Shown in pieces: positions 17,313 through 57,401 of a DNA stretch of 64,000 bases; the first letter of the stretch is position 1; each line of letters starts with the position of its first letter. The position numbers and the translations under genes were made by a program. This stretch comes from Isurus oxyrinchus (taxonomy: Eukaryota): NCBI GenBank assembly GCA_026770705.1, contig JANJGN010000009.1, positions 164,424,001-164,488,000 of the forward strand. Reading direction: 5' to 3'. The notes under the pieces were generated by a model. That model had not been told where the DNA came from and ran no database searches. It saw nothing but the letters and a program-made list of their open reading frames with translations.

Positions 17313-17352
17313 ATGGAATTAATTACTCTCTTGATTCTAATGCCTGCATCAA
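17313..17352 (+). CDS. Gene B exon 1, signal peptide
   Basis: Strong Kozak gaaccATGG; [13 protein letters not shown] plus A|gtaagt donor, phase 1, matching the Ig exon. Same 40-nt size as the gene C leader. Confidence 0.8.
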
Positions 17353-29300: not shown

Positions 29301-32300
29301 CGGTCACCCAGTCTGCGTTTGGTCTCTCCAATGTAGAGGAAACCACATTGGGAGCAGCTAATGCAGTAGACTAAATTGAGGGAAGTGCAAGTGAAATGCT
29401 GCTTCACTTGAAAGGAGTGTTTGGGCCCTTGGACGGTGAGGAGAGGGGAAGTAAAGGGGCAGGTGTTGCACCTTCTGCGGTTGCATGGGAAGGTGCCGTG
29501 GGAGGGGATGAGGTGTAGGGGGTGATGGAGGAGTGGACTAGGGTGTCCTGGAGGGAACAATCCCTGTGGAAAGCCGCCAGAAAGGATGAAGGGAAGATGT
29601 GTTTGGTGGTGGCATCGTGCTGGAGTTGGCGGAAATGGGGGAGGATGATCCTTGGAACGCAAAGGCTGGTGGGGTGATAAGTGAGGACAAGATTGAAGCT
29701 TTCTCACAGACAGGTTTTATCATTCAATTTTTATAATTTTACAGAAAGCAAAATAAACATACACGTTAAATTAATGTAGGAGTTGAAGTATCAAAAAGAA
29801 ACTTTTAAAAATATTTTAACATGAAAAGGAGATATTTGACATTCCACAAATATAAAATAGTGTTTTTCAGGGCTAGAGAGACTAATCAACAATAAATATA
29901 ACTAAGTATGCTATTAGAATCCCAGGTACAACTCATTTAACAAGGCATACATTTTTCAAGGGTTTTTCTGGTAAGACTATTAGAGTGAAATGTGGAAGCT
30001 CATGTCAAATTTCTAATTGATTTCTATCTGTTTACACTTCAAGAGCACACTCTGTAGACGAGCAGGGTATTACTGACAGCAACTTCTGGATTTATGCTCT
30101 GCATGTGCGGGTAGCAGAAAATGCCATCAGTTTCATCGAGTTATGATGACAGATGCTGACGGAGCCATCGTTGTTACAACTGAAAAATAAAGGCTGATGT
30201 AAAGAGTTAAAGTCATGATGCCTGGGTATATATTGGATTGCCTAGATGCAGTGCAAAGAGGAGGGTTGGGTAGGAAGCCTCATGGGCACAGAAATCTGTT
30301 CCCAATCCTCTTCTAGGCTGCAACTTTCATGTGATCCAAAATATGCAATCTCAGGAATGGGGAAGTCTGCCCCTTTGTGCCGTTCCAGGGCACTTTGAGG
30401 TTTTGCAAGAGGTTTAGTACTGTCTTACAGTGGATTACTTTATGAATCAAGTACTTTAGAAACCAATGGATTCTGTAATCCAATGGAACCTCCTGAGGAG
30501 GTGACAAGGAAACAAATGTAAATCCAAGGTTATTCTGCCTTTCAGAAGAATAAAACCTCTGCAGAGCAAATGGTAAATTGGCTTTATGAAGTTATACATA
30601 AAACACATATCAAATATCGGTTAAATAAATAAAACCCATCAGGAACCTTTGCAAAAATAAAAGTAAAATACTGCGGATGCTGGAAATCTGAAACAAAATC
30701 AGAAAATGTTGGAAAAATGCATCTGTGGAGAGAGAAAAACAAAGTTAATATTTTGAATCCGTACGAGCTTCTTCAGAGAAGAGGAAATGTGATGAAATTT
30801 AAAACAAAAACAGAATTACCTGGAAAAACTCAGCAGGTCTGGCAGCATCGGCGGAGAAGAAAAGAGTTGACGTTTCGAGTCTTCATGACTCTTCGACAGT
30901 TCTGTCGAAGGGTCATGAAGACTCAAAATGTCAACTCTTTTCTTCTCCGCCGATGCTGCCAGATCTGCTGAGTTTTTCCAGGTAATTCTGTTTTTGTTTT
31001 GGATTTCCAGCATCCGCAGTTTCCTTTGTTTTTATCTCTGTGATGAAATTTATACTGTTTAAGGGGGCGTGGGGCAGGTGGAGCTGGATAGAAGGCCAGC
31101 GATAGGTAGGGACAATGGAGAGACTGACAAAGATGTCACAAACTAAAGGGCAAAAGGATTGTTAATGGCAGTGGTTTGTGCTAAAAAAACAGGTGCTATA
31201 GTGGCATAAAGGTAAGAAAGCAGAATGTGATTATAGCAGAACAAGGATAGCATTGTGTGAAAGAACAACATGGAACAAGCATGGAAACGCTTTGTGGAAC
31301 ACCTGCGGTCTGTCCGCAAGCATGACCCAGACCTCCCTGTCGCTTGCCATTTCAACACTCCACCCTGCTCTCATGCCCACATGTCCGTCCTTGGCTTGCT
31401 ACAATGTTCCAGTGAAGCCCAACGCAAACTGGAGGAACAGCACCTCATCTTCCGACTAGGCACTTTACAGCATTCTGGACTGAATATTGAGTTTAATAAC
31501 TTCAGACCATGAACCCCCTCCTCCATCCCCACCCCCTTTCCGATCCCCTTTCTTCTTCATTCATTTATATTTTTTACCCATTTGTCTTATTTTTATTCAT
31601 TTATCCATAGTTTTATCCCCTTTTTTATCCCATTTTCTATACTTTTTTTCACTCCCCCACCACCACCCCCTCCCCTCACCTCATCCCCTACAGGGCCATC
31701 TGAACCTTGTTTTATGTTGTTCTTTCCCGCAATGCTATCATCACATTCTGCTTTCTTTATGCCACTACTAGTACAATTTTTTTTAGCACTAACCACTACC
31801 ATTAACAATCCCTTTGTCCTTTAGTTCATGACATCTTTGTCTGTCTCTCCTTTGTCCCTACCTATCGCTGGCCTTCTATCCAGCTCCACCTGCCCCACGC
31901 CCCCTTAAACAGTATAAATTTCATCACATTTCCTCTTCTCCAGCTCTGAAGAAGGGTCATACGGACTCAAAACATGTTTGAGCTCAATAACGTGCTTACT
32001 ATAAAATGATGTTTTGTATAACTTTATTTTACAGGCATGAATGAACAGAATTTTACTGGCATGGAAAATCCTGCAGGAGCCTGCAAGGTGAGACGATGTC
32101 ACATCAGAGTCACATGGTTGCAGCAGACCCAAGGAGACCATTGTCAACTCTGGTTGGATACATCCTGGAATGACATTCTGACCACATGACACTTGATCAT
32201 GTGACTGACTGACTTATGTTCAGTCACATGACAAATGCAAATGTTAATGTGTTTGCTCATAAAGGTTGGGTCACCTGTAGTTGCCTGTGGGTTTGAACCT

Positions 32301-33785
32301 GCAACTGTTGTGCAAGAAGTTCTGAGAACCAGGAGGTCGCTCATGACCAGGAGGAGAGGGGAAACATAGGGCAGGGAAGAATAGAAATCAAGGATAATGG
32401 AGTGATTTACAGAGGGTAAAACAGGTGGGAGGAACTTTTACTCCACCATTAACCAGAAATGACTCACTGGAATTGGCTGGTAACTAATAGTAATACTGGG
32501 AACACTCAGATACCCCTAGTAAGTGAAAGCAATAAAATAACTCACTGATAGTACTTTTCATTCCTTCACAGGATATGGGCATCGTTGGCTAGGCCAGCAT
32601 TTATTGCCCAGACCTACCACCTTCCTGAACCACTGCTGTCCATGTAGCGTAGGTACACCCAAGTGCTGTTAGGAAGGGTGTTCCAGGATATTGACCCAGC
32701 GACAGTGAAGGAATGGCAATATAGTTCCAAATCAGGATGGTGTGTGATTTGGAGGGGACCTTGCAAGTGGTGGTGTTCTCCTCTAGGTGGTAGAGGTTGT
32801 GGGTTGGGAAGATGCTGTGGAAGGAGGCTTGGTGAGTTGCTGCAGTGCATTGTGTAGATGGTACACACTGCTGCCCCTGTGTGTCAGTGGTGGAGGGAGT
32901 GAATGTTTAAGGTGGTGGATGGGGTGCCAATCAAGCAGGCTGCTTTTATTCTACCTGATTGAGTATGTGGCAGGAAGGCTTGTGGATGACCTTCCTGCCC
33001 CACCACCAACAGAAGCCCTTCTAAGAGCCTTACCCTGCTATCCAGCAGCAATTGGGATGATTGCCATGCAGGGAGTGTGAGGAGAAACCTATACAGTGTT
33101 GCTTGTGGGCTCTAACACAGGTGGTGCCCTTGTTCAAAGACGCTCAGTGCTTGATCAAGAAAACCAGCATCGGGGACCAGATGACAGCCACCCGCCTACT
33201 CTTTCTGCTGACTACCCTCCCCTGCGATGCCCCCCACCCCCTACCCTCCTGACACCCATCTCCCGTCACCCCTCACCCATATACTGGGATACAGCGATGA
33301 TACTCGGCCTTGGGTGGATGTCTTAGCGGCAGCAGCCACCATCTCCACAGTGCGCTGCCATTCAATTAAACTGCCAGCCTCTGATTGGCTGGCAGCTCTC
33401 GGCATGTGGCCTCTTCCGCCCCTGGGGTCCTTGATCCCAGGAAAGGCCTTCCACTGCCAGTTAAGTGCCTGATTGACACTTAATACAGCAGGCTTTCCCT
33501 AAAAGCCACATGCAGGACTCTCACTGGGCCTCCAGCCGACTGGCCAGATCCCCTTCGCCTCCGTTACACTTGCTGTGAGTTTGCGTTATTGTGGTAACAG
33601 TTTTCCAATTGTCTCAGTTTTCTAAGGAAGATGAAGAGGTGACATACTCCACGGTGAAGACAGCACCCAGAGCTAACTTGGAAAAAACTTACTATAATCT
33701 TCAGGATCTTAAAGCTGAAAGAACAGCCGAAGGCCAAGATGCTTCGGAAACTGTAGAATATTCCAGAGTTTATTTCAAATCATAA
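17313..33785 (+). CDS. Gene B: CD300/CMRF35-like (pIgR/MDIR-family) single Ig-V inhibitory receptor, 267 aa; join(17313..17352,22534..22863,24253..24358,26235..26341,32035..32087,33618..33785)
   Basis: All six exons are bounded by GT/AG with consistent phases (1,1,2,1,0) and total 804 nt, open to a TAA stop. Domains: leader [13 protein letters not shown]; V domain with [20 protein letters not shown] (extra C-C' disulfide typical of CD300/pIgR); S/T stalk; TM; tail with VTYSTV, TYYNL and VEYSRV. Confidence 0.88.
17875..20000 (+). pseudogene. Harbinger Myb/SANT-like DNA-binding gene (spliced, degenerate)
   Basis: [43 protein letters not shown] (donor 18149|gtgagg); second exon from 18780 [17 protein letters not shown] with the TGGG motif. 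Frameshift near 17940. Confidence 0.75.
20000..20917 (-). pseudogene. Harbinger (HARBI1-like, DDE_Tnp_4) transposase, frameshifted and 3' truncated
   Basis: ORFs 20336..20917 and 20043..20339: [14 protein letters not shown], (NRKGFHS)[50 protein letters not shown] 1-nt frameshift lies near 20381. Confidence 0.9.
22534..22863 (+). CDS. Gene B exon 2, Ig V-set domain (CD300/pIgR-like)
   Basis: aacag|GT..GAAG|gtaag, 330 nt, within ORF 22536..22937: [47 protein letters not shown]. Confidence 0.95.
23345..23740 (+). mobile_element. tRNA-derived SINE, same family as 54505-54880
   Basis: cactggactagtaattcaaaggcccagg..catctagttcactaatgtcctttagggaagg..; an antisense fragment lies at 24480-24635. Confidence 0.68.
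24253..24358 (+). CDS. Gene B exon 3, Ser/Thr-rich (mucin-like) stalk
   Basis: ttatag|GT..CCTGA|gtaagt, phase 1 to 2; [35 protein letters not shown]. Confidence 0.85.
26235..26341 (+). CDS. Gene B exon 4, transmembrane (uncharged)
   Basis: ttttacag|T..AGAG|gtacat, phase 2 to 1; [35 protein letters not shown]. Not in the ORF track. Confidence 0.88.
26410..26665 (-). mobile_element. Deu-domain (AmnSINE/SacSINE-like) SINE fragment
   Basis: cagtcactgttgtaatg..aatttgcacacagcaagatcccacaaacagca..gagggataaatattgg..gcatgggatctttt. Related fragments at ~34560-35180 and ~60555-60650. The family name is from recall. Confidence 0.5.
27320..28105 (-). mobile_element. L2/CR1-clade LINE 3' fragment, same family
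   Basis: ORF 27694..28092: [45 protein letters not shown]. Confidence 0.82.
28582..29690 (-). mobile_element. Penelope-like element 3' part (GIY-YIG endonuclease plus pseudo-LTR)
   Basis: ORF 29135..29707: [63 protein letters not shown]. Confidence 0.9.
28642..28680 (-). ncRNA. Minimal type I hammerhead ribozyme motif in a PLE pLTR
   Basis: Minus strand reads AGUU-CUGAUGA-A-GGGUC-AUACG-GACUC-GAAA-CGUC-AACU: canonical core, 5-bp stem II, palindromic ACGU stem III, GUC cleavage triplet and AGUU/AACU stem I. Confidence 0.75.
30660..31975. mobile_element. Penelope-like element in inverted (fold-back) arrangement
   Basis: The + strand GIY-YIG C-terminus ([40 protein letters not shown], 31286-31512) lies between inverted arms ~30760-31280 and ~31700-31975. 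Confidence 0.8.
30801..31038. repeat. Short palindromic PLE pLTR unit inserted in the older PLE, 13-bp TSD
   Basis: Near-perfect ~100-bp inverted arms centred at ~30900. TSD TGTGATGAAATTT at 30788-30800 and 31039-31051. Confidence 0.85.
32035..32087 (+). CDS. Gene B exon 5, short cytoplasmic exon
   Basis: tttattttacag|GC..AAG|gtgaga, phase 1 to 0; [18 protein letters not shown]. Shares ENP and terminal K with the equivalent gene C exon. Confidence 0.72.
32555..32945 (-). mobile_element. LINE 3' fragment, same family
   Basis: ggctaggccagcatttattgccca..ttccaggat.ttgacccagcgacagtgaagg signature. Confidence 0.7.
33618..33785 (+). CDS. Gene B exon 6, ITIM-bearing cytoplasmic tail
   Basis: gtctcag|TTT, phase 0; [55 protein letters not shown]. 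Homologous to 57222-57401. Confidence 0.88.
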   Translation, partial: FSKEDEEVTYSTVKTAPRANLEKTYYNLQDLKAERTAEGQDASETVEYSRVYFKS

Positions 33786-41310: not shown

Positions 41311-41330
41311 ATGAGGAAGTAAATGATTCA
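41311..41330 (+). promoter_or_regulatory. Putative ETS/PU.1 and AP-1-like sites upstream of gene C
   Basis: ATGAGGAAGT 41311-41320 and TGATTCA 41324-41330, ~60-70 bp before ATG 41383. Confidence 0.45.
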
Positions 41331-41382
41331 GTACCGATGCAGAGATATTTGTACTGAAAACTGTGGATACCTGACTGGGACC

Positions 41383-41422
41383 ATGAAGTTCACTGCACTG
41401 CTGTTTCTCACTTTGACACCAA
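41383..41422 (+). CDS. Gene C exon 1, signal peptide
   Basis: ggaccATG; MKFTALLFLTLTP plus A|gtaaga, 40 nt, phase 1. Confidence 0.82.
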
Positions 41423-44400
41423 GTAAGATTATCCAATTCTATATCTGGAATAATAGCTCGCACCTATGAAGCGTCTTTATCTTACAAAGATGGCTTCGAG
41501 TTCTTAACGGAGGAGTGAAGAAAGACAGGCTCTGAGCCAAAGTGGGGGAGATTGGAGGGGTTGACCAAAAGCTCCATAAAAGAGTTGGGTTTTAAAGAGG
41601 GTCTTAAAGGCGGAGAGAGAGTTGGTGAGGAGGGGGCAGGGGTTTAGCGATGGAGCTTCGTAAAGTTGGGTCTAATTGAAAACACGGCCACTAATTCTGG
41701 GGCAAAGAGAGGAAATAATGCACAAGAAGCTTGATTCAGAGGAATGGAGAGTTCCCTCAGGGAGGGGCATGGTGGAATATTGGAGGACATTAGAGGGATA
41801 GTAACAGATGAGTACGATTTGCATAAACTAGAGGCCCCTTGCGTGAAATAGGCACTCGCTCCTCCCATCTAGGGGAAGGCCCTTTAAATAAAGGCAGCAA
41901 CCATAGCGTCAGTGTTAACCAGGCTGTAAATCTGCCAATTTGGCCGGGTGAAAACCAGCCTCAGGTTAACATTTCAGTTTTAAGTCCTTTGCCAAAATTG
42001 AATTTTATTCAGAGACCAGTAGCATAATAATGAAGATAAACTTACAGCTCATGCAGAATGCAAAGTGAATGTGGGTGTCATGTCATTAGATTTTAACCTG
42101 CAAAGATCGTTTGATTGTTGAGCTTCCCAGCTGGCCTGAGTTTCTGCCCTGTTCCAGCCCCTGCATGCTCAGCTCATACTTTTCAGTGTGATGCTTGTAG
42201 TATAAGGATCTGGCACATATAGGGTTAATATGGGATTGAGTACAGTACTACCCACATAGTGATGTAAGAAGGCACATGACCCAGACCCAGGGTCAGTTTG
42301 GTATTGAGCAGAAACGTGTATAGATCTAAACATGGAGACAGCTTCTAGCCTGTGCAGGTGTAACTACTGCTAGTAGTTAATAAAAGCTTACAGTTAACCT
42401 ACAAGGGTATCACAGTGGTTAGCACTACTGCCTCACAACTCCAGGGATCCAGGTTCAATTCTGGCCTTAGGTGTCTGGCTACGTGGAGCTTGCACGTTCT
42501 CCCAGCTTCCATCAGGTTAAAATACTACAGTTAAATTGCCTGTGAGTGTGTGCCCGGTGATGGACTGGCGTGTACCGTACCCTTTGCCCCTCAGGTTAGG
42601 CTCCGGCTCCCCGTGACCCTGAATTGAATAAAGCAGTTTGGGAAAAATAAGGGAGTAAGTGAATTAACCTACAGAAGATTAATAAGGCCTTTTTTAAGGC
42701 ATATCGTTCTGTAACCAACACCCTCCCAACAATGTTACAAGTTTCTCACCATCAATGTCCACTGGGAAAATTATCACCAATGTGGCATTTCAGGGAGGGT
42801 AGCGCTTTAAGGTTTAATCTGAGGACTTAATACCAGAAAATATTAAGCAGTATCAGTAGAATATTGATAAGAACACAGGAATTGCTAAAGAGAAATAGAT
42901 CAAGGTCCATCTAGCTCACTACCTACTATTCTGGTAGTAACAGGATACAATAATAATCAAAGATAAAAGCAAAAAACTGCGGATGCTGGAAATCCAAAAC
43001 AAAAACAAAAATACCTGGAAAAACTCAGCAGGTCTGGCAGCATCTGCGGAGAGGAACACAGTTAACGTTTTGAGTCCGTATGACTCTTCAACAGAAGAGT
43101 TCCGTTGAAGAGTCAAACGGACTCGAAACGTTGACATTAATAATCAAGTTGCTAATAGGTCCAAAGGCTTCTGTTGTATCCAAAGATGTTACTCTTATCA
43201 CGCCACACTTCAGACTATTCATATACTGTGCTCAAAAATATTACTTTCTGTAAGAAATCTCTCCAAGTTGCAGTCTACTGTCTTTGCTTTCACCTTCCTT
43301 GCCCAAGGAAAATGGTACTGAACTGAGGGGAGTACAAGAGCAGAGGGACCTGGGGGTGTGTATTAAGGTGGTAGGGCAAGATGATAAGGCATTTATGGGA
43401 TTCTTGGACTTGTAAATAGGAGTATTAAATACAAAAATGAGGAGTTATATTAAAGTTTCACTAATATTAGTTAGGTCTCAGCTGGAGTACTGAGTTCAAT
43501 TCTGGGCACCGCCCTTTAGGAAGGACACCAAGGCCCTGGCAAGGGTACAGAGTAGATTTAGCAGGATGATACCCAGGGATGAAGGTTATGTGGACAGATT
43601 GGAGAAGCTGGGATTATTGTCCTTAGGGCAGAGAAGATTAAAGGAAAATCGGATCGAAGTATTGAAAACAAGGAAGGATTTTCATACAGCAAGTAGAGAG
43701 AAACTATTTCCTCCGGCAAGTGGATCGGTAACCAGTGGTCATAGACATAAAATAGTTGGATTATAAACTAGTGGATAATTGAGGGGAAATTATTTCACAC
43801 AGAACGTTGTTATGATCTGGAATACACCACCAGAAACGGTAGTGGAATCAGATTCCATTGGAACTTTCAAAAGGCAGTTGGACGTGTGTTTGAAGAGGAC
43901 AAAAGGTGGATGCTGGGGTGTGGGATTAAATCAGACAATAAATTTTCAAAGAGCTGGCACAGACAAAATAGGCCGAATGGTCTCCTTCTCCACTTTAAGA
44001 CTCTTGATTCCAGTCCCTTCCAGGACTTGTTTTTGTCCCCTTGTGAAGCACTTGCTTGTATTGTGCCAAAACGATTGCCTGAAATTGATTATCACGATAT
44101 TTCAAGCTTTCTTAAGATGTTACATTTCACCCAACAGCTTTGCTGACACAAACTGCATCGATAGTGATGAAAGCTGCAGTGGGGGAAACCATCACTGTGG
44201 AATGTTCACAGGCAGCAAAGTACCAAGGATACTCTTACATCATATGGTGTAAGGCAACTTCCAAAACTAACTGCAGTCCTGTAGTGAGCACCCAGAATCA
44301 TCAGATCGAGAAATCTAATGGAACAACATCGATAGCTACTACCAATGGGTTAAGTTCTGTAACCATTCAACAACTTCAGGAGAAAGATACAGGAACATAC

Positions 44401-47400
44401 TGGTGTGTGGGTGATTTTCAAGGCTCTTTCCATATTTTGGATGTTATATTACTGAAGGTTTTGTCCGGTAAGAATTTCGCAAAAGATTGTTTATAAGGAT
44501 GATAATATGGCCTGGGTGGAGTAAAACCAGGGCGGCTGCTCTTTAGGGGCTGTGTGGGCATAACATGAGCTGAGTTGACTAAGGTATTATCATAGCTCCC
44601 AGTGCACAAGTAATGACCTCCGATGCTACCATTTCTATCTATTTCTATGAACCGATCTAAACAGCCTTTCTCCTTATACTTCTATAAACCTAAAATCATA
44701 TTCCTCTCAAGCCTAGTTTTTTTCAATCTTTCATGGGATGTGGGCTTCGTTGGCTGGATCAGCATTTATTGCCCATCCCTAATTGCCCTTGAGAAGCTGG
44801 TAGTGAGCTGCCTTCTTGAACCACTGCCGTCCATGTGGTGTAGGTATACCCACAGTGCTGTTAGGAGGGAGTTCCAGGATTTTGACCCAGTGACAGTGAA
44901 CGAACGGCGATATATATTTCTAAGTCAGGATTGAGAGTGACTTGGAAGGGAGCTTGCAGATGGTGGTACTTCCATGGAGTTGCTGCCCTTGCCCTTCTAG
45001 GTGGTAGAGGTCGCAGGTTTGGAAGGTGCGGTCGAATGAGCCTTGGTGAGTTGCTGTGTGCCTCCATAGTAAAATATCCCTAATTTCTGTTGGTGCCCAG
45101 GATACTGAACAATTCAGCAAACCATTTACAAGACCGGCAATGGTGACTGCATGAAATGAGCAGTATTGTCAAATCAATATATAAATGAGCCTTCTGCAAT
45201 ACATTGATATTAATTGGTTAAAACACATTGGAGGTTGTTTTACTGCTAGTTCCAACTAATCTTTCAGGCTCCACAGTGGATTCATTAGCAGGGTCTGTGA
45301 AGGCCTTGGAATAAAAAACAAAAAACTGCAGATGCTGGAAATCCAAAACAAAAACAGAAATACCTGGAAAAACTCAGCAGGTCTGGCAGCATTGACGGAG
45401 AAGAACAAAGTTGACGTTTTCGAGTCCTCATGACCCTTCAACAGAACTTCTGTTGAAGGGTCATAAGGACTCGAAACGTCAACTTTGCTCTTCTCCGCCG
45501 ATGCTGCCAGACCCGCTGAGATTTTCCAGGTATTTCAGGCCTTGGAATAAACCTGCCGGAGAGGCCCTCCTGCTGGAACATTAGGACTGCAGCCACTTGC
45601 AGCTTGTGCTCACCCCAACCCTCCCTCAATCAACTCCTTCCACCCTCCCCTGATTTAAGAAGGTCCTTGGGGCCTCTCTGTTCTGTGTGCCACGTAGATA
45701 GCATCTAGCTTCAGGCAGTAATGAACTTAGGCCCAAACTAAGGCATAATTGGTCTTCAGCAATAGCAGAAGATGGTGATCAGGAATTGGCAGCCCATTTC
45801 CCAAGCTCCTAATTTTCTTTTCCATTGACTTAATACTCCAAGAAGGAATATACTGGAGCCCTATATACCCTACCAAGAAATATTGACATTGTTTGTGTTC
45901 AGCAGCATTCATTTGCAATCATTTGACATCAATTGCACTCAAAACCAATTCTTTAGCTTTCATTTGGCATTACAAGTAACAATCAACTGACACTGTCATC
46001 AATTGCCATTAAACTGCAATGCTCAAACACTTGTGATTAACAAACTTACTTAGCTTAAGTATCCTGACACCAAAAATGATCAGAGAGTTTGTTCTCCATA
46101 TTTCTGAATTTCTATCGCTTCAAACATCCTAAAACTGAGCTAACATTAGAAAATGAAGACTCTGTTCTAACATATGTTTTTATAAACTAGTTTCATGTTT
46201 TTGTACATAACCTATAACTAGTACAGCACACCCCTGCCCCTCCGCTACCCCAGATTGCAGCAGTTTTCTTCCCCATCTTCCCCGAGTAATTTTCTCCTCC
46301 CTTCCCAACATCGCCCTCCTTGCTTCCAGTCGCATCCCTGGATTGCAGCAGATTTCCTCCCTCTTTTCCCTTCCCCGCACCCCCCCCCACCTCTCCTTCA
46401 CTTTTCCCTCTCCTCCCCACCTCTCCATCCTCCACCCTCCTCTTCACCTGTCCTCTCTCCACCTTCTCTGCCCATCATTTTCACCTCCCCCCCCACCCAA
46501 CCTCGCTCCTTGTTGCCTCCCCTCTTACCCCCCCTCCCCAACTATCTTCCCTCTCCTCCCACCCTACTCCCCGGGAGTGCTCAGGGGTAGGCAGAAAATG
46601 GAAGTGATGATGAAGACCTGCTTTTCAGCCAGCGTGGACCAGCAATGGTGGCAGGAAAGAGGGTGTGTCTTCGGGTTGGGGAAGTCAGGGTGGAGAGACT
46701 CATCAGCGGGAACCTGGACCCAAGATTTGGTGACGGGGGCCTGGCCCAATGTTTGGAGGCAGGTGAAGGAGGCCCCAAGACTCGCCCCCGAGACTGGGGT
46801 GGGGGTGGGGCGTAAGTCTGAGGCTGAGTGGGGTGGTGGTGGTGATGTGGCGCAGCGTAGGCCGGGAATGGAGGAGGGGGTGGGGTGGAAGGGTAACACC
46901 AGTGACGCCAAGATTCGCACCTATCACCCTGCGTCCTGCAATGTTTTCTTTCCAGGTTGGCAATTAATAGATTAACAACATGAATTTAGAACTGATGGGG
47001 ATCTGGTGCTCTCAAGCATGTAAGATTTTTCAGACTAAATGGAAAAAATAATAAATTCGGTTATTATTTAAGCAATTAATTTCCTTGTTTTTCAATGCAG
47101 GTTGCTGAGCGCATTTGGTGCCTTTGAGCATTTAATTTCGGTGCCTTCAAGCACCTTTGATCACCTTTGCTGTCAAAGATGGCAAAACACTGCTGCATGA
47201 ATGAAAAGCTCGTTCCAAATTAGAACATTTGATGTCGAATGATCGCTGATTGTTTCTGAGCGCAAAAGTAACATTGAAATTTCCTGGTGGACAATTTGAA
47301 CTCGGTGGGCGAGATTTTAACTCATCCAAATCCATCCACTTGCACGGGGTTAAAATCAGGCCCAGTAGCTCTAGCAGTGCAAACTAAGACTCAAGTTGCT

Positions 47401-50400
47401 TAGCGTGCAACGAAAGGTATACTCAGGTCTCTTTCCTGTATAACAGGTCTAGAGTTAGGTACAATTGCATCCGGCTTCAGAAATTCACCCTTCCATGTTG
47501 AGCATTTTCACCACAGTCACAATGGACAGAAAGAATTTACCAGACTTAGACCCACACACCTCCGAAATATTAAATTAAGGGTTTAGAATGAGCAGGAGTT
47601 GAACACAGGAGCCTTCAACGATTACATTGGACTTTATGACTATAATCTGTTCATACTTTAAAGAACAGAAAATATTTTTGACATTTTCAACGTTTGACTA
47701 ATTTTATTATATTTTGTGCAATGAAAGATGTTCTCTTTTTCAGCATTTTGAACTTTTAATGACTCTTTTGCCCCCATTTACCAACAGATTCATGGAAACC
47801 AGCTCGACCAGAGATCAGTGGTGTAAGGGGAAATATCGCCACTGTACCATGTCTGTACACGGACAAGGAGATACATTATAAGAAATTCTTGTGCAAAGTA
47901 ACCTCTGTAAACAAATGCACTATTATTGCCAGCTCTGATGGGAATATAGGAAATCTGTATTTTGGGAGTGTTTCAATCATTACTAATAATTCTCATGATC
48001 TTACCATTACCATAAGCAACATTAGTAAAGGAGATGAAGGAGAATACTGGTGTGGAGCAGTAAATGTAGTTGACATAAAGATTGTTCAGGTAAAAAACCT
48101 GACAATTTCTGAAGGTAAGAACCAATTTAAATTATTATAATTCAGTCGGCATTGCATAGAATTCAGAACAGAGATAATTGGTCAAATGCCGGTGTTAATG
48201 CTTCACCTGAGGCCCCTCCTACTCACCCTTTATCTCTCCCTTTCAGTGTATCCTTCTGTTCATTTCTGCCTCAATGTGTTGATCTAGCTTTCCCTTAAAA
48301 GCACCTATGATTTTTATTTTTGCCTCAACTACTCCTTGTGGTGGCGAATTCCACATTTAACAAGCTCTACATTCTAATAATTCTCTGAGTAAAGAAGAAT
48401 GTCCTTCCTGAGTTCTTTATTGGATACTTTGGAGATTATCTTAGATTTAAGACCCTTAGTTTCTGTCATAAGTGGAAACATCTCTATGGGCAGAGCCTTT
48501 GGCTCGGGGCCTGCTCACCGAGGCATAAGATGACGCAGGGGTAATGTCGGGCGTCTGTCCCAATGTCACCGCGCGTCGCTTAGATTTTCAGTTCAGCGAG
48601 CGTGCAGCCGACTCAGCTGCGTGCCCCCCGAACTGTTAAAGGCCTACTCAGGCCTGTTAAAAAGCATTTAAGTCCATCAGCTGAACTGCCTGTCCAACCT
48701 TAAGGCTGGCAGGGGGGCAGGTGAAGAGCCCAGGCGGCCTTCGCATTTTTCATGGAACCTCATCCACCGGCGGGACGAGGTTTCATGAACGATTTAAAAT
48801 TTTCAGAAAAACTTTTATTAAAATGAACGCACAGGTCCCAGCTCATGTGACAGTTTCACACACGAGGGGACGTGTCATAAAATTTTTTACAGCACCTTAT
48901 TAGACGGTTTAAACTTTAAAACTAATCTCCCTGAGGCACCTCTGTGCGCCCCTGGCATTTTCCTGGAGTTGGGCCGCAATCCCCTCACCCCCTCCCCTCG
49001 CACCGAGGCCGGAGCCCAGCAGCTACTTGAAGGCGATCTCCTGGCAGCGGGTGGAGGGCCAATAGGGCCTCCTCTCAATCCCCCCACGAAAGAGCCACAG
49101 CCACAGTCACAATCGTTCCTGTCGAGGAGACCCCCCCCCCCCCCCCGCCCCCCTCCACAGTGACAGCCCTAACACATAGGGGCTTTCTTTCATGTCAATC
49201 TCCCAGGCTTCCGAGAGCACCTGCATTTTCAAACTCCCTCTCAGCACCCCACCACCTCGCGCACCCGCACCCCACCCCCCCCACCCCCCCCCCCCCACCA
49301 CCACTACCCCTGCCTGCCTTTTCCACCACTAACTGAATCCACCTTTTTCTCAGCTCCCTTTTCGCAAGGTTACATGACAATTAAAGACAAAGTACTCCAT
49401 TCGACCAACCTCCCTTCACCCATTCAGAATCTGACCAGTTGGCCTCAGGTACTGAAACAGCCAGTGTTCAGAATGAATATAACATGTCCCCTCTGCCACA
49501 TAACTGCCTGCTGCCCCCCACCCCACCCCCACCCCCACCACCACCACACCACACCCCACCACAGAACCCCCACCACAGAACCCCCATCCCACCACCCCCA
49601 CACCAAATAAACCCTGCCCCCCCCCCCGCGTTTGCTTTCTTAAGTGCTATGTAATGGAGATAGAAGTTATGTTGTATTGGGATTGATTATCAATTACTCA
49701 TTGAATTATTCAATCATGTTTACTTACAAAATTAGGAAATCCAACAGTATTCAGCGATGCCCCAAGGTAAGATTTTAATAATTGTCTTGAAATAACAACT
49801 TTTAGTCATTCTGATTGAAGTCATAGCTAATAGAAGGTACTGCTGTCCTCACATTACATGCTGAACAATGGTCCAACTTTAATACTACCACAAGCCACAC
49901 AGCTGCCTTTTGGTGCCATACTTGTCCTCATATGCTTCTGCTATTAATTGTCTTCGCATTCGATACAAACAACATCAAAGCCAGGGAGCAAAATTGTCAC
50001 ACGACCTGCCAGCAATCATTCAGATGGCGATAATATGTGAGCTATGCATTACCACTTTGTACTGATCTCCCTTCCCAACTTCAGTGTTTTATTCATTCAC
50101 TGGATGTGGGCACTGCTGGCTAGGCCAGCGTTCATTGCCCATCCCTAATTGGCCTTGTGAAGGGGCTGGTGAGCAGCCATCTCGCACCACAGCTGTCCAA
50201 GTAGTGTAGGGTATTCCCATAGTATTGTTAGGAAGGGAATTCCAGGATTTTGACACAGCAACGATGAAGGAACCTTGATATGTTTCCAAGTCAGTTAAGT
50301 GTGGGACTTGGAAGTGCACCTACAGGTGGTGGTGCTCCCTTTGTCCTTCTAGGTGGTAGAGGTCGCGGGTTTGGAAGGTGCTGTTGAAGAAGCCTTGGCA

Positions 50401-53400
50401 AGTTGCTGTGGTGCGTCCTCAACAGCGAGAGATGATCTCGCCAGAACATAGCTCACCTTACATCTTAGGGATAATTACATTAAAAACCGATTCCTAATTT
50501 TAGTTCACAATCTGCTACCTGGTGGAGACATTTTCCCTTGTTTTATTGTGTACACAGTCTTAATTTCATCTACTCCACTTCAATCTTTTAGAGATATCAC
50601 CCCACAAACGTGGTACATCATCCTCACAGTTGTTCCAGGACTATTAATCTTATTGCTGCTGGTTCTGTTTATATTGAGAAAGAAAAGGCTGAGACCAGCC
50701 AAAGCTGAGGGTGAGTAGCCAAGGAAACATTTTTTCTGCAATAAATATGCAAGTTGCTTGGTAGAATAGTGCAATAATAAAATGTTGATGTAAACTTTCG
50801 AATCGGAAGTAGAAGGGGCTAAATTTTCTCAGTTCCCATGAGGCGAGTTAGGAGGCTAGAATGGGAGCAAAGGTACAAAATAATGCGTTGGGTTGGCTAC
50901 CAGAATGGTTCCCGCCTCCGAGTGATCTTTCCGAGCCAAATCAATGTGGCGAAGGCTACCCTCGCAGTGGCAGCAGGGAGCTAGTTAGGCCCATTAATGG
51001 GACAACTGGGGAGTGGGTGATAGCGTCGTTGGTATCTTCTTGATTGCAGACAGGACCCCCAGCTGAGGCCCAAGCCTGACAAGCAACTGGAAGTGGCCTC
51101 CTGGCGGGAGGGCTGGAGGTAAGCAATGCCGCCACTCAATCAAGCCAGCACAGACTTGCCAGAATTCACTGGCCACAGCCGCAGTCACAGGTCACCCTGC
51201 GGAGGGTATCCTCGCCATAATGATGGCCACACAGCTTGTGGCCAGGTGCCATTTTTAATTTTTCCCAACACCGCAGGCGGCACCTCCATTTTGAGGCGCC
51301 CTCATGGTCTCCTGCCTGTCTCAGTGGTGCCAAATCTCCTGGCGGATTTGCCTTCCAGAAACTGCGGAGGGGCATCCCATTGAGCCTCCCACTTCCATAA
51401 TCTGCCTGCCGTCCTTCACTGAGCCAGGATTCCAGCAGTGGCTTCGTAATTTGCCGCCTCTCCGAAGATCACAAGTGACCGAGGCCTCTCCCAGGGTCCT
51501 GAGCCGGAATTGAGGCTGACACCCAACCCGGAAAATACAGTCCTTGGACTAGGGGTTAGACCACCTATCCCCTCCAGCCGAACCAGTTTTGTCACTGTTT
51601 ACTTGAGATATAATCAATATAAAAGATAATGACAACGACAGTAAATAAAGCAGGCTTTCCATTCTGATACATGGGATCCAGGCAGGAGGGGAACTCCACT
51701 GAAATTTGTCATCCAGTGGAATATAATTTTACAGAAGATCCTGAGTCATTTCTTACCACAGTAGCAGAATTTGCAATAAATCCAATGCGTGGACTACGTT
51801 ACTGACACTCAAATCCTTCACTTTCTCTCTCCCTTTCCTTCTATTCTGAAGACACTGATGCTTTGTTAAAAGACAATTGCACAGCTGCCACTTGTCCCTT
51901 AGCACCTTGGCCAATTGGCCATTTTTCGCACTAGACTAGGCAGTGATTATGGGAGGCTATTCAACTGCAGTAGGTATCCTAGTGAAGCTTCTCACCCAAT
52001 GTCCACGAGCAGAACTTCCAGCAGAAATTCCTGGATGGCCTCCAGGGCCAGGAATTCTGTCCGATTCTTCTCTCCCTATGTCTGGGGTGCTGAAGCCCCA
52101 CCACAGATGCTTCTAAGATTAACTAATGCACAAAAGTGCAAGGAATAAAGCCAAGTTTACACAGCTCAGCATCTCACTATCTTAACTTGTTCAACCATTG
52201 AAATAGCAGCTGAATCTTGTGGTTTTACTTATTTATTCTTGGGATATGGGTGACGCTGGCAAGGCCAACATTTACTACCCATCCCTAATTGCCTTTGAGA
52301 AGGTGGTAGCGAACCACGTTCTTGAACCTTTGCAGTCCATGTGATGCGGGTACATCCACGGTGCTGTTGGGGAGGGAGTTCCAGGATTTTGACCCAGCCA
52401 CAGTGAAGGAACAGCGATATATTTCCAAGTCAGGATGGTGTGTTACTTGGGGAGAACCTGTAGGTGGTTGTGCTCCCATGCATTACTGTTCTAGCCCTTC
52501 TAGGTGGTAGAGGTTTGAAAGCTACTGTGAAAGGGGCCTTGGTGGTTGCTGCTGTGCAGCTTATAGATGATGCACATAACTGGCACTGTGCCCTAGAGGT
52601 GGACAAAGTGAATGCTTAATCATCATCATCATATGAATGTTATGGCTGAAAATTGTTCTGCAATCCACCTTCCATGATCCTTTATAAAAAGTTTCACAAA
52701 GGTTGAAACTGTTAAACTTTAAATATTATAAGTAAATTCATTATTCTACACACACGGCATTTTTGAATAGCACCCACTGTCTATCACTGAAGGCTGTGAT
52801 CTGATCTTGTAGATTCTGATCAAACTTTTGAATCCTTTTCGTAGCTTATGACATAGTTGGAGCCTCTAGCTTGCAAGATATAAAATTGCATTGGAAAGCA
52901 GTGAAAAACTCTTTGAGTTAGTGCGATATCCCACAACGCTTTCGGAAATATTACTTGTACGTTACTCATCACCCATCTGGGGGTGAAGTTATTTGGAGAA
53001 GTAGTAATCCATTAGTCAGGTTGAAAGGCAGCACAAGTCAAAGAGGTACTGCAAGTGTACTATGCTCAACTCAGTTGTTATCTGTCATGTGGTTAACAAG
53101 TACCTGTCATGTGGTTAGGAAGTAACTTCCTATAGTAGATTTAAAGAGCGTGTGGGCGGGCGGGTGAAAATGTGAAACTGCGAGTAGGGTTGAGGTTCTT
53201 GCAGTGATTTCTATTTCAGATAAGACTAGAACAAAGCTACTGCTGGTCAAAATGAATGAGCACATTCTTATTGTAAGTGAATCACATTTTATTTGTTTTA
53301 CAGGTAAAAATGAAAATCCAGAATCCCCCACCCTGACCAGTAAGGTAAGAATGGAAGGTATTTTAGGATAATGATATTGTTCAACTTCTCTTATTTTGCA

Positions 53401-56400
53401 ATTATTTAACACAATACTTTATTTCCTAAATAAGTTCCAAATTCCCTAAAGTACTCATCTGACATTATATAAATTGGTTTTCAACACCACCAGCTGCGAG
53501 TTCCCACTCTAAACCACTCACCATCCTGACTTGGTATCGTATCGCTGCTCTTTTATTGTCGCTGGGTCAGAATCCTGGAACTCCCTCCTAACAGCACCAT
53601 GGGTGTACCTACACCACATGGGCTGCAGCGGTTCAAGAAGGCAGCTCACCACCACCTTCTCAAGGGCAATTAGGTATGGGCAACAAACACTGGCCTAGTC
53701 AGCAACACACGCATTCCTTGAAAAAATAAAGATTTTGACAAGGTGCTACATGACGGACTCCTTAATTATTTTTTAATTCATTCATGGGATGTCGGTGCCA
53801 CTGGCTAGGCCAGCATTTATTGCCCATCCCTAATTGCCCTTGAGGGGGTGGTGGTGAGCTACCTATTGAACCTCTGGTGCTGTTAGGGAGTTCCAGGATT
53901 TTGACCCAGCGACAGTGAAGGAATGGCGATATATTTCCAAGTCAGGATGGTGAGTGGCTTGGAGGGGAACTTCCAGGTGGTGGTGTTCCCATCTATCTGC
54001 TGCCCTTGTCCTTCTAGATGGTAATGGTCATGGGTTTGGAAGATGCTGTCTAAGGAGCCTTGGTGAGTTTAATAAAATACAGACCCATGGTATCAGTGGA
54101 TAAATCTTGGGTCAGGTGTAGAATTAATCGCATCCTCATAAACAGAAGGCTATTATTACTGGCAATGGAGACCAGTTATTCATGGAATTCTGCTGTGTTT
54201 GGTGATAGAGATGGAAAGAGAAACCACTTCATCTGTGATGAAGGTATTGAGGGAAATTAATTTACAGATGATACAAAGCAGATACAGCAGGTTATTTGGG
54301 TGGGAAATAGATTACAAGCAAATCTAAAAGTCACAGAGAAATGGGCCCACTATGACAGATGTAATTTAATAGGCATCAATGATTTAATATGGGTAGGGTT
54401 CACATCAAGCATGGGTACATTATGTGGAAATTTAAGTCTGCCGAGTGAGAGAAGGAGCTAGCAAAAGTAGGCAGATTACTATGGTGTATTGCCAGGATGA
54501 TCCAGGGGAGATGATGGCGTAGTGGGAATGTCACTGAACTAGTAATCCAGAGGCCCAGGCTAATACTCTGGGGACACGGATTCAAGTAATTCATTTCAAT
54601 AATTTGGAATTTAATGCTAGTATCAATAATAATGACCATGAAACTATCAGCGATTATCATTAAAAACCCATCTGGTTCACTAAATGACCTTTAGGCAAGG
54701 AAATCGGTCATCCTTACCTGGTCTGGCCTACATGTGACTCCAGACCCCAACAATGTGGTTGACTCTTAACTGCCCTCTGAAATGCCCTAGCAAGCCATTC
54801 AGTTCAAAGGCAATTAGAGATGGGCAACAAATGCTGGCCTTGCCAGTGGCGCCCACATCCCATGAAAGAATAAAGAAAAAAAATGATCAGGTACAAAATT
54901 TAAAATAAAGTATCATCCTTACCTAGACCCCATCTGAATAGAATACTGTGTCTAATGTTGGTTCACTCATATGTTAGGTTAGGGCATTGCCCTAGAAAAG
55001 GTTGATATTGGTATAAAGATCCTTAGATACAATGGGCTGGGACTTTTTAACTCTAGAAAATGAATTCAATGGGGAGATTAGATGGTGGTCTTTTAAAATA
55101 ATGTAGATCAGCCATTTGAGTTATATAGATTAAGAAAGATCAAGCGATATGAGTAAAAGTTACATAAGGTTAGATGCCAGAAGGCATTTGAGAATCATTG
55201 CCCTATGGGACAAGATGTAGGCTCATTCAGTGAGATAGATTGGCTGCAAATGTGCAAAAGAGAACTGAATCATTTCCTAACTGTAAGCTGATATGATAAT
55301 CGATAAAAGGAAAGTATTGTATTCCAGTCACTGTGATCTCCTGCATCTTGTTAGGTTGTCTTGGGGATTAGAGGAATTTCCCAGGGCATTTTTTCTTAAA
55401 TTGGCCTTAGGCTCTTCCATGAAAAGCAAAGGAAGCAAGGGGGAGACTGCATGACAGTCTGGCTCAGGCTTAATGGGCCTATTGTTATTTATGAATGTTT
55501 GTACATGTATAACTATACATCTGTCTTGTCAACATATGCGTTCATCATCCTCCTCTAAACCATTCTGTCCAATTTTGCATCAGCCTCTGCCAATTGTTGC
55601 TTCTTCCTTTCCTTCTACTCAAAAAAATATGCTACAGAAAAGTAGCTACAGTATGCACTTGCCAATACAACTTTAATAGATTAATCTTGAGGTCATGGAA
55701 GTTTCCAACTTTGCTGTAATCAGCTTGTGCTTAGCAAGTTTAAGGTTTGGGTAAGTGAGAAATGTCATTTCACATCTAGCATTTAGTTTTGCAATAACCA
55801 GGACTTCTATTGATACATTCATTACACACTGAATAAAAACTGATGTTGATACATGCATCATATTAGAGATAGAGAAGAGATACAGATCTAGTGTTACTGA
55901 TCTGGTTGCAGCAATGATTAGAGTTGCAAGCTAAATGTATTTGCACAGCTGATCTTGCTGCTTAATGCCAGCTTCTTTGCTGGACACCAGTTTTAACTGT
56001 ACATTCATGAAGTGAAGCAAGAGGTTAGGATGAGACGAATGTGGCACTCCTGAAAGGGGTGTACTGTTTAATGAAAGGTAAATGATGCAAATATACACTC
56101 ACCTACCATAACGTGGTAATGGCACTTGTAGTACTCAGCCAACCCAACACCCCAGCTCCTTCACTTCAAGATGTATCATTGCAACAGCATTTTGTTTACA
56201 AAAATAAAGAGAGCAGTATAGTTTCTAACTCAGACTTGTTCATAGTAAACTGTGAAATCTCCAATCTTTTAATGATTTCAATCATTTAAAATTAGTAAGC
56301 GGTCAAAATACTCGAGAAGAGGTCCATATCGATCCACTTGTGTGAAAAGATAGGTATAACCTAAATTATGTTGGAAATGCTAAATATCAGAGTCAGCAAA

Positions 56401-57401
56401 TATATGCATGAACCAAATCTAAGCATCCATTTATGATTAAGTTTTAGTAAAAGGGTCAATTATCTTTAATTCTTGGCATTCAGATGAGCTGGTAAGGACT
56501 GCATTTATTTCCCATCCCTAATTACCCTTGAGAAGGTGGTGGTGAACTGCCTCTTGAACTGCTGCAGTCCATGTGGTGTTGGTACACCCATGGTGCTGTT
56601 AGGGAGGGAGTTCCAGGATTTTGACCCAGTGATAGTGAAGGAATGACAATATAATTTCAAATCATGATTCATTTCAAATCTTGGAAGGGGAACTTGCAGG
56701 TGGTGGCGTTCCCATGCGTTTGCTGCTCGTGCTTCTAGCTGATTTGGAAGATGCTGTCGAAAGAGCCTCGGTAAGTCGGGACAGTGTGTCCTGTGGATGG
56801 TACACGCTGCTGCCACACTGCATCGATAACGGAGCAAATGAATATTTAACATGGTGTATGGAGTCCCAATCGAGTAGGCTACTTTTGGATGGTGTTGAGT
56901 TTCCTCAAGTGTTTCTGGAGCTGCAATCATCCAAGCAAGTGAAGAGTATTCCATCACACTCCTGACTTATACCCACAGGTAATGGACAGTCTTTAGGGAG
57001 TCAGGAGGTGAGCTACTCACTGCAGAATTCCCAGACTTTAACTTGCTGGTGTAGCTACAGTATGTATATGGCTGGTCCAGTTAAGTTCCTGGTCAATGGT
57101 AAGACACAGGATGTTGATAGTGGGGTAATGTCATATGAATGTCAAAAACATATGTATATATATTTATATTTATTTACTTGTTCACTTTTAGACAGCTACA
57201 AGCACAAATTATGTATTTTAGTTTGACAGGGAAGCTGAAGACATGGTCATTTATTCCACCGTGACCATTGAACCTTCTGATCAAACAAAGGGAAATTCTA
57301 CCACTTACGCCAATCTGGAGGGTTTGAAAGAGCAACAGGGCAGCATCAAGATCAGTTCTTCAGAAACAGTGGAATATTCCGCACTGGCGTTCAGATCCTA
57401 G
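41383..57401 (+). CDS. Gene C: two-Ig-V-domain pIgR-like/CD300-like inhibitory receptor, 355 aa; join(41383..41422,44138..44467,47788..48114,49736..49766,50592..50710,53304..53344,57222..57401)
   Basis: Seven exons with GT/AG boundaries and consistent phases (1,1,1,2,1,0), 1068 nt open to TAG. Leader, two V domains each with a C-x7-C extra disulfide, short stalk, TM, and tail with VIYSTV, TTYANL and VEYSAL. Confidence 0.88.
42196..42731 (+). mobile_element. Possible solo LTR hosting the V-SINE
   Basis: TGTAG..CCAACA termini, internal AATAAA, flanks atgct/atgtt (5-bp TSD with one mismatch). Confidence 0.45.
42404..42663 (+). mobile_element. V-SINE/HE1-like tRNA-derived SINE with a 10-bp TSD
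   Basis: A box cacagtggttagcact, B box ggttcaattc, V-domain-like gtggagcttgcacgttctccc. TSD TTAACCTACA at 42394-42403 and 42664-42673. Confidence 0.8.
42961..43137. repeat. Short fold-back PLE pLTR unit, 10-bp TSD
   Basis: TAATAATCAA at 42951-42960 and 43138-43147; inverted arms centred at ~43097. Confidence 0.78.
43310..43995 (+). mobile_element. Decayed CR1 3' fragment
   Basis: tcagctggagtactgagttcaattctgggcacc; ORF YVDRLEKLGLLSLGQRRLKENRIEVLK; NVVMIWNTPP. Confidence 0.7.
44138..44467 (+). CDS. Gene C exon 2, Ig V domain 1
   Basis: ccaacag|CT..TCCG|gtaaga, 330 nt; GETITVEC..IIWCKATSKTNC..SVTIQQLQEKDTGTYWC. Confidence 0.93.
44720..45060 (-). mobile_element. LINE 3' fragment, same family
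   Basis: gcccatccctaattgcccttgagaag..ttccaggattttgacccag signature. Further copies at ~50085-50420, 52230-52620 and 60170-60400. Confidence 0.7.
45316..45536. repeat. Short fold-back PLE pLTR unit, 15-bp TSD
   Basis: AGGCCTTGGAATAAA at 45301-45315 and 45537-45551; ~90-bp inverted arms centred at ~45447. Confidence 0.82.
46330..46575. repeat. C/T-rich low-complexity tract
   Basis: Polypyrimidine and C runs that account for the Pro/Ser-rich spurious ORFs. Similar C-rich tracts at 49130-49630 and a G-rich tract at 529-601. Confidence 0.7.
47788..48114 (+). CDS. Gene C exon 3, Ig V domain 2
   Basis: ccaacag|AT..GAAG|gtaaga, 327 nt; GVRGNIATVPCLY..KKFLCKVTSVNKC..LTITISNISKGDEGEYWCG. Confidence 0.93.
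48488..48960. mobile_element. Harbinger-type MITE, same family as 4559-5092
   Basis: Shares atgacgc..tgtcgggcg, gaagagccca.g.ggcctt, aacctcatcca and taatctccctga blocks with 4559-5000. Confidence 0.65.
49736..49766 (+). CDS. Gene C exon 4, short stalk
   Basis: aaattag|GA..CCAAG|gtaaga, 31 nt, phase 1 to 2 as needed to join the Ig2 and TM exons; GNPTVFSDAPR. Confidence 0.7.
50592..50710 (+). CDS. Gene C exon 5, transmembrane (uncharged)
   Basis: cttttag|A..GAGG|gtgagt; DITPQTWYIILTVVPGLLILLLLVLFILRKKRLRPAKAE. Confidence 0.9.
53304..53344 (+). CDS. Gene C exon 6, short cytoplasmic exon
   Basis: ttttacag|GT..AAG|gtaaga, 41 nt, phase 1 to 0; GKNENPESPTLTSK. Confidence 0.78.
53490..54068. mobile_element. 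Two LINE 3' fragments in tail-to-tail inverted orientation
   Basis: 53490-53730 (+) and 53770-54068 (-) are reverse complements over ~200 bp. Confidence 0.72.
54505..54880 (+). mobile_element. tRNA-derived SINE with a 3' tail shared with the LINE family above
   Basis: Head gatggcgtagtggg..gtcactgaactagtaatccagagg..ggattcaag; body aaacccatctggttcactaa..; tail caaaggcaattagagatgggcaacaaatgctggcc. Confidence 0.7.
56480..57145 (-). mobile_element. LINE 3' fragment, same family
   Basis: ORF 56505..56957: [29 protein letters not shown]. Confidence 0.75.
57222..57401 (+). CDS. Gene C exon 7, ITIM-bearing tail
   Basis: ttttag|TTT; FDREAEDMVIYSTVTIEPSDQTKGNSTTYANLEGLKEQQGSIKISSSETVEYSALAFRS*. Not in the ORF track. 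Confidence 0.88.
   Translation, partial: FDREAEDMVIYSTVTIEPSDQTKGNSTTYANLEGLKEQQGSIKISSSETVEYSALAFRS

Follow-up and report, generated by a model that had tools for sequence, protein, structure and literature searches.

We analysed a 64,000-nucleotide stretch of the Isurus oxyrinchus genome (contig JANJGN010000009.1, here C9, 164.424-164.488 Mb; referred to below as the window) and found that it carries, at the end of a cluster of V-domain receptor genes, an intact gene with two V domains, which we call gene C. Gene C is likely to encode a type I inhibitory receptor, likely of blood cells, whose outer domain (D1) is probably a member of the TREM branch within the CD300/TREM/pIgR superfamily and whose inner domain (D2) lies next to the membrane. 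The architecture of the gene, its splicing in a relative, its conservation in sharks and rays, its position at the cluster end and the existence of paralogs with an arginine in the membrane helix are observed, and form the basis of this reading.

Gene C consists of seven exons that join into an intact open frame of 1068 nucleotides (nt) encoding 355 amino acids (aa), and all of its introns are of the GT-AG type, with phases 1,1,1,2,1,0. The exons and two flanking signals, in window coordinates, are as follows.

41383..41422, forward strand: exon 1, leader, 40 nt, phase 1; matches white-shark protein P0003
44138..44467, forward strand: exon 2, encoding V domain D1 (C36-C103, C51-C59); placed on the TREM branch by trees and fold search, profile scores against
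47788..48114, forward strand: exon 3, V domain D2 (C145-C212, C159-C167); conserved more than D1, phylogenetically unplaced
49736..49766, forward strand: exon 4, 31 nt, short stalk; joined to exon 3 at a GT..AG joint in sequencing run X2
50592..50710, forward strand: exon 5, uncharged transmembrane helix and basic stop-transfer
53304..53344, forward strand: exon 6, first cytoplasmic exon, 41 nt; a 41-letter gap in the X2 contig
57222..57401, forward strand: exon 7, tail with an immunoreceptor tyrosine-based inhibitory motif (ITIM) at Y307, a motif like the corresponding switch motif (ITSM) at Y325, an ITIM at Y348, and the stop codon
57476..57481, forward strand: AATAAA, 74 nt past the stop; the X2 contig continues beyond it
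41313..41320, forward strand: predicted Ets/PU.1-type site, 70 nt upstream of the gene C ATG

The complete 7-exon, 355-aa model proposed in the initial annotation is borne out by this frame, by the GT-AG introns and by the white-shark RefSeq protein P0003, an identically exon-joined product with a 20-aa N-terminal extension, to which gene C is 95% identical in D1 and 92% in D2. Six sequencing runs were aligned to check the junctions, of which the informative one, X2, comes from a related organism and is presumed to be RNA; it is the one run of the six with gene C contigs that skip introns. Five of the six junctions expected in RNA are supported by contigs of this single related-species run. 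The joint of exons 2 and 3 is seen directly, in one contig that aligns in two pieces, as is that of exons 3 and 4, with its GT..AG joint; the three following joints (exons 4-5, 5-6 and 6-7) are deduced from lengths inside one 1111-nt contig, in which the 41 letters between 50710 and 57222 equal the length of exon 6. The joint of exons 1 and 2 was not seen in any of the six runs. No exon joint was present among the joints listed for runs X1, X8, X9, X10 and X11, and X1 contained an unspliced exon 3-intron piece of gene C. For exon 7, the acceptor at 57221/57222 retains the frame; an alternative acceptor at 57229/57230, with the exon starting at 57230, was rejected because it shifts the frame and the X2 contig match begins at 57220.

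An in-frame ATG at 41323 (window 41323-41382) would add 20 residues to the N terminus and is used in the white-shark model; the horn-shark model likewise starts upstream of 41383. The start context of ATG 41323 is weaker than that of ATG 41383. At the other end, the AATAAA at 57476 may not be the signal used, since the X2 contig extends past it. The motif at 41313..41320, which we take to be of the Ets/PU.1 type, was picked after it had been seen; a site of this type lies at most 150 nt upstream of three of the six leaders examined (those of gene C and of its neighbours B and A), against 0.023 expected per 150 nt.

With 49.8 and 39.4 bits, both V exons exceed the Pfam V-set cut-off of 26, and the cysteines at positions 36, 51, 59 and 103 in D1 and 145, 159, 167 and 212 in D2 give each domain a C-x7-C pair, confirming what had been proposed from the sequence. 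A V-set domain with the extra C-x6-9-C disulfide of the C-C' region is what defines the CD300/TREM/pIgR (MDIR-type) superfamily, and the membership of gene C in it, also proposed earlier, stands; its best named PDB matches are pIgR, CD300, NKp44 and TREM. The use of C-x7-C as a marker of the CD300/pIgR type in particular is not supported. Cx6-9C is present in almost every TREM and CD300 protein, in NKp44 and in pIgR (NILT preprint, bioRxiv 10.1101/2022.04.21.489081), so the motif fails to tell CD300, TREM and pIgR apart. The membrane helix of gene C (residues 251-271) contains no charged residue and is followed by an 84-aa tail with the tyrosine motifs VIYSTV, TTYANL and VEYSAL, the first and last of which agree with the ITIM form (I/V/L/S)xYxx(L/V/I). 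What we take to be the CD300-type FG-loop pattern, seen in the cluster neighbours, is absent from D1 and D2 in the alignment.

Of 111 candidates, a search with D2 picked out 17 proteins, every one of them from a shark or ray (Carcharodon, Cetorhinus, Mustelus, Scyliorhinus, Pristiophorus, Heptranchias, Hemiscyllium, Pristis and Narcine), and a Heterodontus orthologue was found in a later search. These orthologues carry automatic names, either 'pIgR-like' (RefSeq) or 'CMRF35-like'. Over 10 sequences the mean identity is 48.7% for D1 and 57.6% for D2, with 12 and 22 invariant columns, respectively, of 109. All 7 full-tailed orthologues (P0003, P0005, P0007, P0008, P0014, P0015 and P0016) retain the first and the last tail motif, and 6 of the 7 retain the middle tyrosine. 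Other proteins (P0001, P0004, P0009, P0011 and P0012), from catsharks and a houndshark, combine a gene C-type ectodomain with an arginine in the membrane helix and a tail of 19-37 aa. In the same animals D1-D2 modules are repeated, with up to eight V domains in one model, and the ectodomain comes with either a tyrosine tail or an arginine-bearing helix with a short tail; certain of these database models may be fusions. Judged by their sequences, the tyrosine-tailed forms and their arginine-bearing twins make up a set of the kind known from paired receptors, inhibitory and activating.

Among receptors whose function has been tested, the nearest analogue is chicken TREM-B1. This protein combines two V domains with an uncharged transmembrane helix and the motifs TIYAAI, VMYVNI and VEYATL, recruits SHP-2 and inhibits thrombocyte degranulation (PMC4788293). 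Gene C shares with it the two V domains, the uncharged helix, one ITSM-type and two ITIM-type tyrosines and a last motif with V-E-Y, but differs in motif order, the ITSM-like motif being the middle one. The repetition of the two-domain unit in catshark and houndshark relatives (P0002 and P0001) recalls chicken TREM-B2. D1 groups with bird proteins of this kind, whereas the identity of gene C to the peafowl protein P0168 is only ~25%. We would expect the gene C product on thrombocytes or myeloid cells, recruiting SHP-2 as chicken TREM-B1 does. By analogy with that receptor and with CD300 and TLT-1, capture of a ligand by the variable D1 would cluster the receptor, kinases would phosphorylate Y307, Y325 and Y348, and SHP-1 or SHP-2 would be recruited and damp activation. 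D2 could be a conserved spacer or a second contact surface, and the arginine-bearing paralogs would be the activating partners in a paired-receptor system. The ligand may be an anionic lipid, as for TREM2 and CD300; the CD300-type FG-loop pattern is missing, however.

The initial annotation named clustering of the domains with another V-set family, TREM among them, as evidence against its reading. This is what D1 shows in all three of the careful trees, but raw profile scores do not show it. The trees were built from subsets of 110, 50 and 48 rows chosen by us from 702 stored domains, the careful 110-row tree superseding a quick one. In the 110-row tree the D1 domains of gene C and of its orthologues share a clade with bird TREM2, with TREM-B-type bird proteins and with a four-V protein from coelacanth (support 90/94); D1 also groups with bird TREM-type proteins and the coelacanth protein in the 50-row tree, from which bird TREM2 was omitted on purpose (99/95, starred), and in the 48-row tree (94/88). 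Gene B and other cluster domains fall with CD300, TMIGD3 and teleost PIGRL-type domains in the 110-row tree (47 rows, 97/89, starred), and this clade excludes both D1 and D2 of gene C. The approximately unbiased (AU) test rejects D1 within or beside the CD300/TMIGD3/PIGRL group (p 0.029) as well as D1 with gene B (0.017).

All of the top ten Foldseek rows for the predicted D1 model (predicted local distance difference test score, pLDDT, 86) are TREM2, and VIA gives Z scores of 16.2 for TREM2 (root-mean-square deviation 1.8, 104 aligned), 15.7 for NKp44, 15.2 for TLT-1 and 14.8 for CD300lf, the identity to the first three being 26-30%. TLT-1 also shares with gene C an uncharged membrane helix with ITSM and ITIM. 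Unlike gene C, all three are single-V proteins, and their profile scores lie below those of CD300; TREM2 and NKp44 are activating receptors with a transmembrane lysine. The 50 VIA rows obtained with the D1 model contain no pIgR entry, which is not enough to exclude pIgR, and searches with the whole ectodomain were dominated by tandem-V proteins and are not diagnostic. In a search of the 5-Gb genome with bird TREM2, D1 was the best match (44.5 bits; next 34.4). As a control, the gene B V domain matches CD300lf at 69 bits with no TREM2 listed at E 1e-5, so D1 stands clearly farther from CD300 than B does. The ESM Atlas offered only generic V-set clusters for the gene C domains.

A number of observations weigh against TREM kinship. 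CD300 proteins outscore TREM2 both with the single D1 sequence (CD300c 38.3, CD300a 36, NKp44 32.1, TREM2 30.9) and with a profile of D1 orthologues (CD300a 59.7, CD300c 58.7, NKp44 53.6, TREM2 40.2), and among 648 non-orthologous stored domains this profile ranks bird TREM2 54th and bird TREM-like D1 domains 130th and 459th. VIA rows within 1 Z count as ties, and the margin of TREM2 over CD300lf is 1.4 Z. The tree set holds no mammalian TREM sequences, the bird TREM2 came from a query that included D1, the label 'TREM-like' of the bird proteins rests on architecture and on TREM2 and NKp44 as the best single-domain PDB matches of one protein, and the identity of the coelacanth protein is unproven. 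Starred support for the D1-TREM branch appears in only one tree of the three, and mutual attraction of fast-evolving domains can occur. The AU test for the CD300 group was defined after the tree had been seen, and D1 with pIgR-D1 is not rejected (p 0.113). D2 is phylogenetically unplaced: in the 48-row tree it lies apart from the second domains of bird TREM-B proteins, within an open 28-row group that includes CD300/TMIGD3/PIGRL domains. The Narcine orthologue model has no tyrosine tail, and the tail layout is not TREM-specific, since it recurs in gene B, in other genes of the cluster and in a CMRF35-like protein of a turtle. Gene C also lies outside the interval of NFYA and FOXP4, the genes that flank the human TREM cluster, a further difference from the TREM-B types. 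All in all, we judge TREM ancestry of D1 slightly better than an even chance.

These points lend weight to an explanation in which gene C is still an inhibitory receptor but both of its domains are divergent elasmobranch domains of the MDIR/CD300-like kind, the grouping of D1 with TREM being due to long-branch attraction or convergence; we take it seriously as a possibility, although we expect it to be wrong. Like CD300a, CD300lf and TMIGD3, gene C has C-x7-C V domains, an ITIM tail layout and paired activating forms; CD300 gives the top single-domain profile scores for both domains, the other V domains of the cluster fall with CD300/TMIGD3/PIGRL, and gene B and further genes of the cluster have the same three-motif tail exon. 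The NILT preprint (bioRxiv 10.1101/2022.04.21.489081) warns that the signal linking fish receptors to a single human family is eroded. This explanation has to contend with the AU rejection of D1 inside or beside the CD300-like group, with the exclusion of both gene C domains from the 47-row clade and their different FG loops, and with the first place of TREM2 in fold searches, obtained with a predicted model despite the alignment of CD300-like paralogs used for it. TREM2 and NKp44, moreover, align to a longer stretch of the D1 profile than does CD300 (to positions 106, 94 and 90-92, respectively).

The name 'pIgR-like', if meant as kinship, is not supported by the trees. The clade of pIgR/FCAMR D1 domains (100/96, starred, 110-row tree) excludes D1 and D2 of gene C, and neither enters any other pIgR domain clade in the three trees. 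Gene C shares with pIgR (4-5 domains in tetrapods, two in teleosts) and with teleost PIGRL the tandem V domains and the superfamily. Unlike pIgR, it lacks the Ig-binding signature of complementarity-determining region 1 (CDR1) of pIgR D1 in the alignment and the juxtamembrane tail motif S-x-G-S-Y-R-T of python and bat pIgR, having three ITIM/ITSM-type motifs instead, and it has another gene neighbourhood. Teleost pIgR lies near dad1 and lrrc24 (PMC9321927); none of 26 DAD matches falls within C9 148-171 Mb, and the flanks of the cluster are formed by G-alpha genes, AHCYL1 and AMPD. An earlier survey did not find a PIGR homologue in sharks (PMC4016189), and the shark J chain is described as lacking the conserved end that binds secretory component (PMC4279169). 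Since the pIgR signatures are missing and the shark J chain lacks this end, transcytosis by the gene C product is unlikely, and the proposal of an inhibitory rather than a transcytosis receptor is sustained by the ITIM-type tail, the uncharged helix and the missing signatures.

That gene C might nevertheless be the cartilaginous-fish pIgR or a functional stand-in, carrying IgM, IgW or IgNAR across epithelia, we regard as very improbable. Two V domains are what teleost pIgR has (PMC9321927), RefSeq names the orthologues 'pIgR-like', and the best human pIgR domain match of D2 is D1 (31 bits), a pairing that the AU test does not reject (p 0.42). The PDB and Foldseek matches of the whole protein are to pIgR, as expected of any tandem-V family member. 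Against these stand the missing CDR1 signature and tail motif, the ITIMs, the activating-type twins, the distance of about 15.7 Mb from the IL10-family genes, the lack of DAD matches nearby and the state of the shark J chain (PMC4279169). A leukocyte Fc receptor of the Fc-mu or Fc-alpha/mu receptor-like kind, in which the conserved D2 would bind an Ig constant region and the ITIM tail would give feedback inhibition, is improbable, if less so. The stronger conservation of D2 (57.6% against 48.7%) would suit a conserved self ligand, the AU test does not reject D2 with pIgR/FCAMR D1, and the Atlas look-alikes of both domains include a cluster named 'Fc alpha/mu receptor-like' (0.93 and 0.91), although Atlas names are automatic. 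Binding of Ig by pIgR, FCAMR and FCMR occurs through the outermost domain, so the membrane-proximal position of D2 argues against such a role, as does the absence of the CDR1 signature from D2; proximal domains are, besides, often kept for structural reasons.

We prefer, then, an inhibitory receptor with a probable TREM-branch outer domain, and its setting in the cluster bears on where it came from. The two genes to its left in the window are these.

17313..33785, forward strand: gene B, one-V inhibitory-type receptor with a CD300/TMIGD3-branch V domain; 6 exons (17313-17352, 22534-22863, 24253-24358, 26235-26341, 32035-32087 and 33618-33785), 267 aa
4211..8407, forward strand: gene A, with a V exon (4211-4540) 76% identical to the gene B V, an in-frame TGA (4462-4464) and AA where the acceptor AG should be, and an arginine-bearing membrane exon at about 8303-8407; its leader lies just left of the window

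Gene B has a 40-nt leader as in gene C, phases 1,1,2,1,0 with one V exon fewer, and a last exon 42% identical to that of gene C over 62 aligned columns, so that the likeness of the two genes in leader size, exon plan and tail, already remarked upon, holds. Their description as paralogs differing just in domain number does not, since the gene B V domain is on the CD300/TMIGD3 branch of the 110-row tree and a clade of gene C D1 with B is rejected (p-AU 0.017); D2 with the gene B V is not rejected (0.135), yet it is not recovered in the trees. A basking-shark model, P0019, considered as a two-V gene B, was set aside because it fuses several adjacent genes. Gene A, by its stop codon, lost acceptor AG and arginine-bearing membrane exon, looks like a broken activating-type partner of gene B. 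Around the gene B leader, at window 15167-16708 and 19100-21240, lie fragments that we take from their translations to be a long interspersed nuclear element (LINE) reverse transcriptase and a Harbinger-like transposase.

A genome search with the gene B V domain gave at least 40 matches, 39 of them at C9:163.13-164.47 Mb and one at 148.59 Mb; these counts come from single-protein searches and are lower bounds. No V exon was found in the 200 kb beyond gene C, and the cluster therefore ends with this gene. To the left of the cluster lie two G-alpha genes, of which the closer one is of Gi type, and to the right AHCYL1 and an AMP deaminase gene; an AHCYL1 exon matches PDB 'adenosylhomocysteinase 2' exactly and differs from '3' at three positions. 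In human, GNAI3, GNAT2, AMPD2 and AHCYL1 are located in 1p13, close to TMIGD3. Two V domains of the cluster, at C9:164.327 Mb (L002) and 164.354-164.372 Mb (L006), group with mammalian TMIGD3 in all three trees (99/73, as its sister in the 110-row tree, 88/87 and 92/75); L006 has a complete three-tyrosine tail, and by sequence both are possible TMIGD3 co-orthologues. A second two-V gene (L003 and L005, C9:164.377-164.408 Mb) lies upstream, has a different tail and is kept in other sharks, so gene C is not alone in having two V domains. Farther left, at C9:163.13-164.26 Mb, about 33 closely similar V exons, many near-identical, follow at ~30-40 kb spacing; the array may have arisen by recent tandem expansion, or may in part reflect the assembly.

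The same chromosome arm holds markers of other family loci. NFYA lies at C9:161.22 Mb, 3.2 Mb from gene C (164.47 Mb), and a FOXP gene at 152.85 Mb; the region around NFYA (C9:161.2-161.4 Mb) showed no V exon. IL10-family exons are at C9:148.63-148.75 Mb. The IL10 family flanks FCMR-PIGR-FCAMR in tetrapods. In 1q32.2, FCMR, PIGR and FCAMR are linked (PMC6509151).

The interest of gene C lies in a probable TREM-branch gene standing beside TMIGD3/CD300-branch genes, on an arm with markers of three mammalian family loci. That it represents the TREM lineage in cartilaginous fish, as a two-domain inhibitory gene of the TREM-B1 kind in tandem with CD300/TMIGD3-type genes, and that an ancestral cluster is thus preserved, we put at a little under an even chance. 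If so, TREM-type inhibitory receptors are older than the split of sharks and bony vertebrates, and the mammalian TREM (6p21), TMIGD3 (1p13) and PIGR/FCMR/FCAMR (1q32) loci later dispersed from one cluster that sharks preserve. A TREM-derived D1 would give the TREM family a cartilaginous-fish anchor, and a testable model for the origin of TREM, CD300/TMIGD3 and pIgR from a linked cluster. The 'pIgR-like' labels on gene C and many of its neighbours in databases invite the wrong conclusion of an antibody-transport receptor; the evidence points to a paired-receptor cluster. Superfamily receptors are already known from skate as MDIRs (PMC3031540, a second-hand account), and the orthologues of gene C are in RefSeq; no sequence bearing the name MDIR appeared among the proteins that the homologue searches gave. 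We found no description of gene C or of a shark TREM in the literature searched, which leaves out most subscription papers.

A lone V-domain gene at C9:148,589,597-148,599,090 (L012, L071 and L072) lies between an ATP-synthase-b exon (148.579 Mb) and the IL-20-like and other IL10-family exons, the position expected for PIGR/FCMR/FCAMR. Its V domain lacks the B-strand cysteine, is 40% identical to bird pIgR D1 and is unplaced in the trees, and a candidate membrane exon has a mid-helix lysine, as in activating types. A weak search found no homologue of this V exon, and no further V exon scored in 148.5-148.9 Mb. The gene is a better candidate than gene C for a descendant of the pIgR locus. Beside the IL10-family gene, on the minus strand at C9:148.628 and 148.648 Mb, lie two near-identical IL-20-like exons, a recent duplication.

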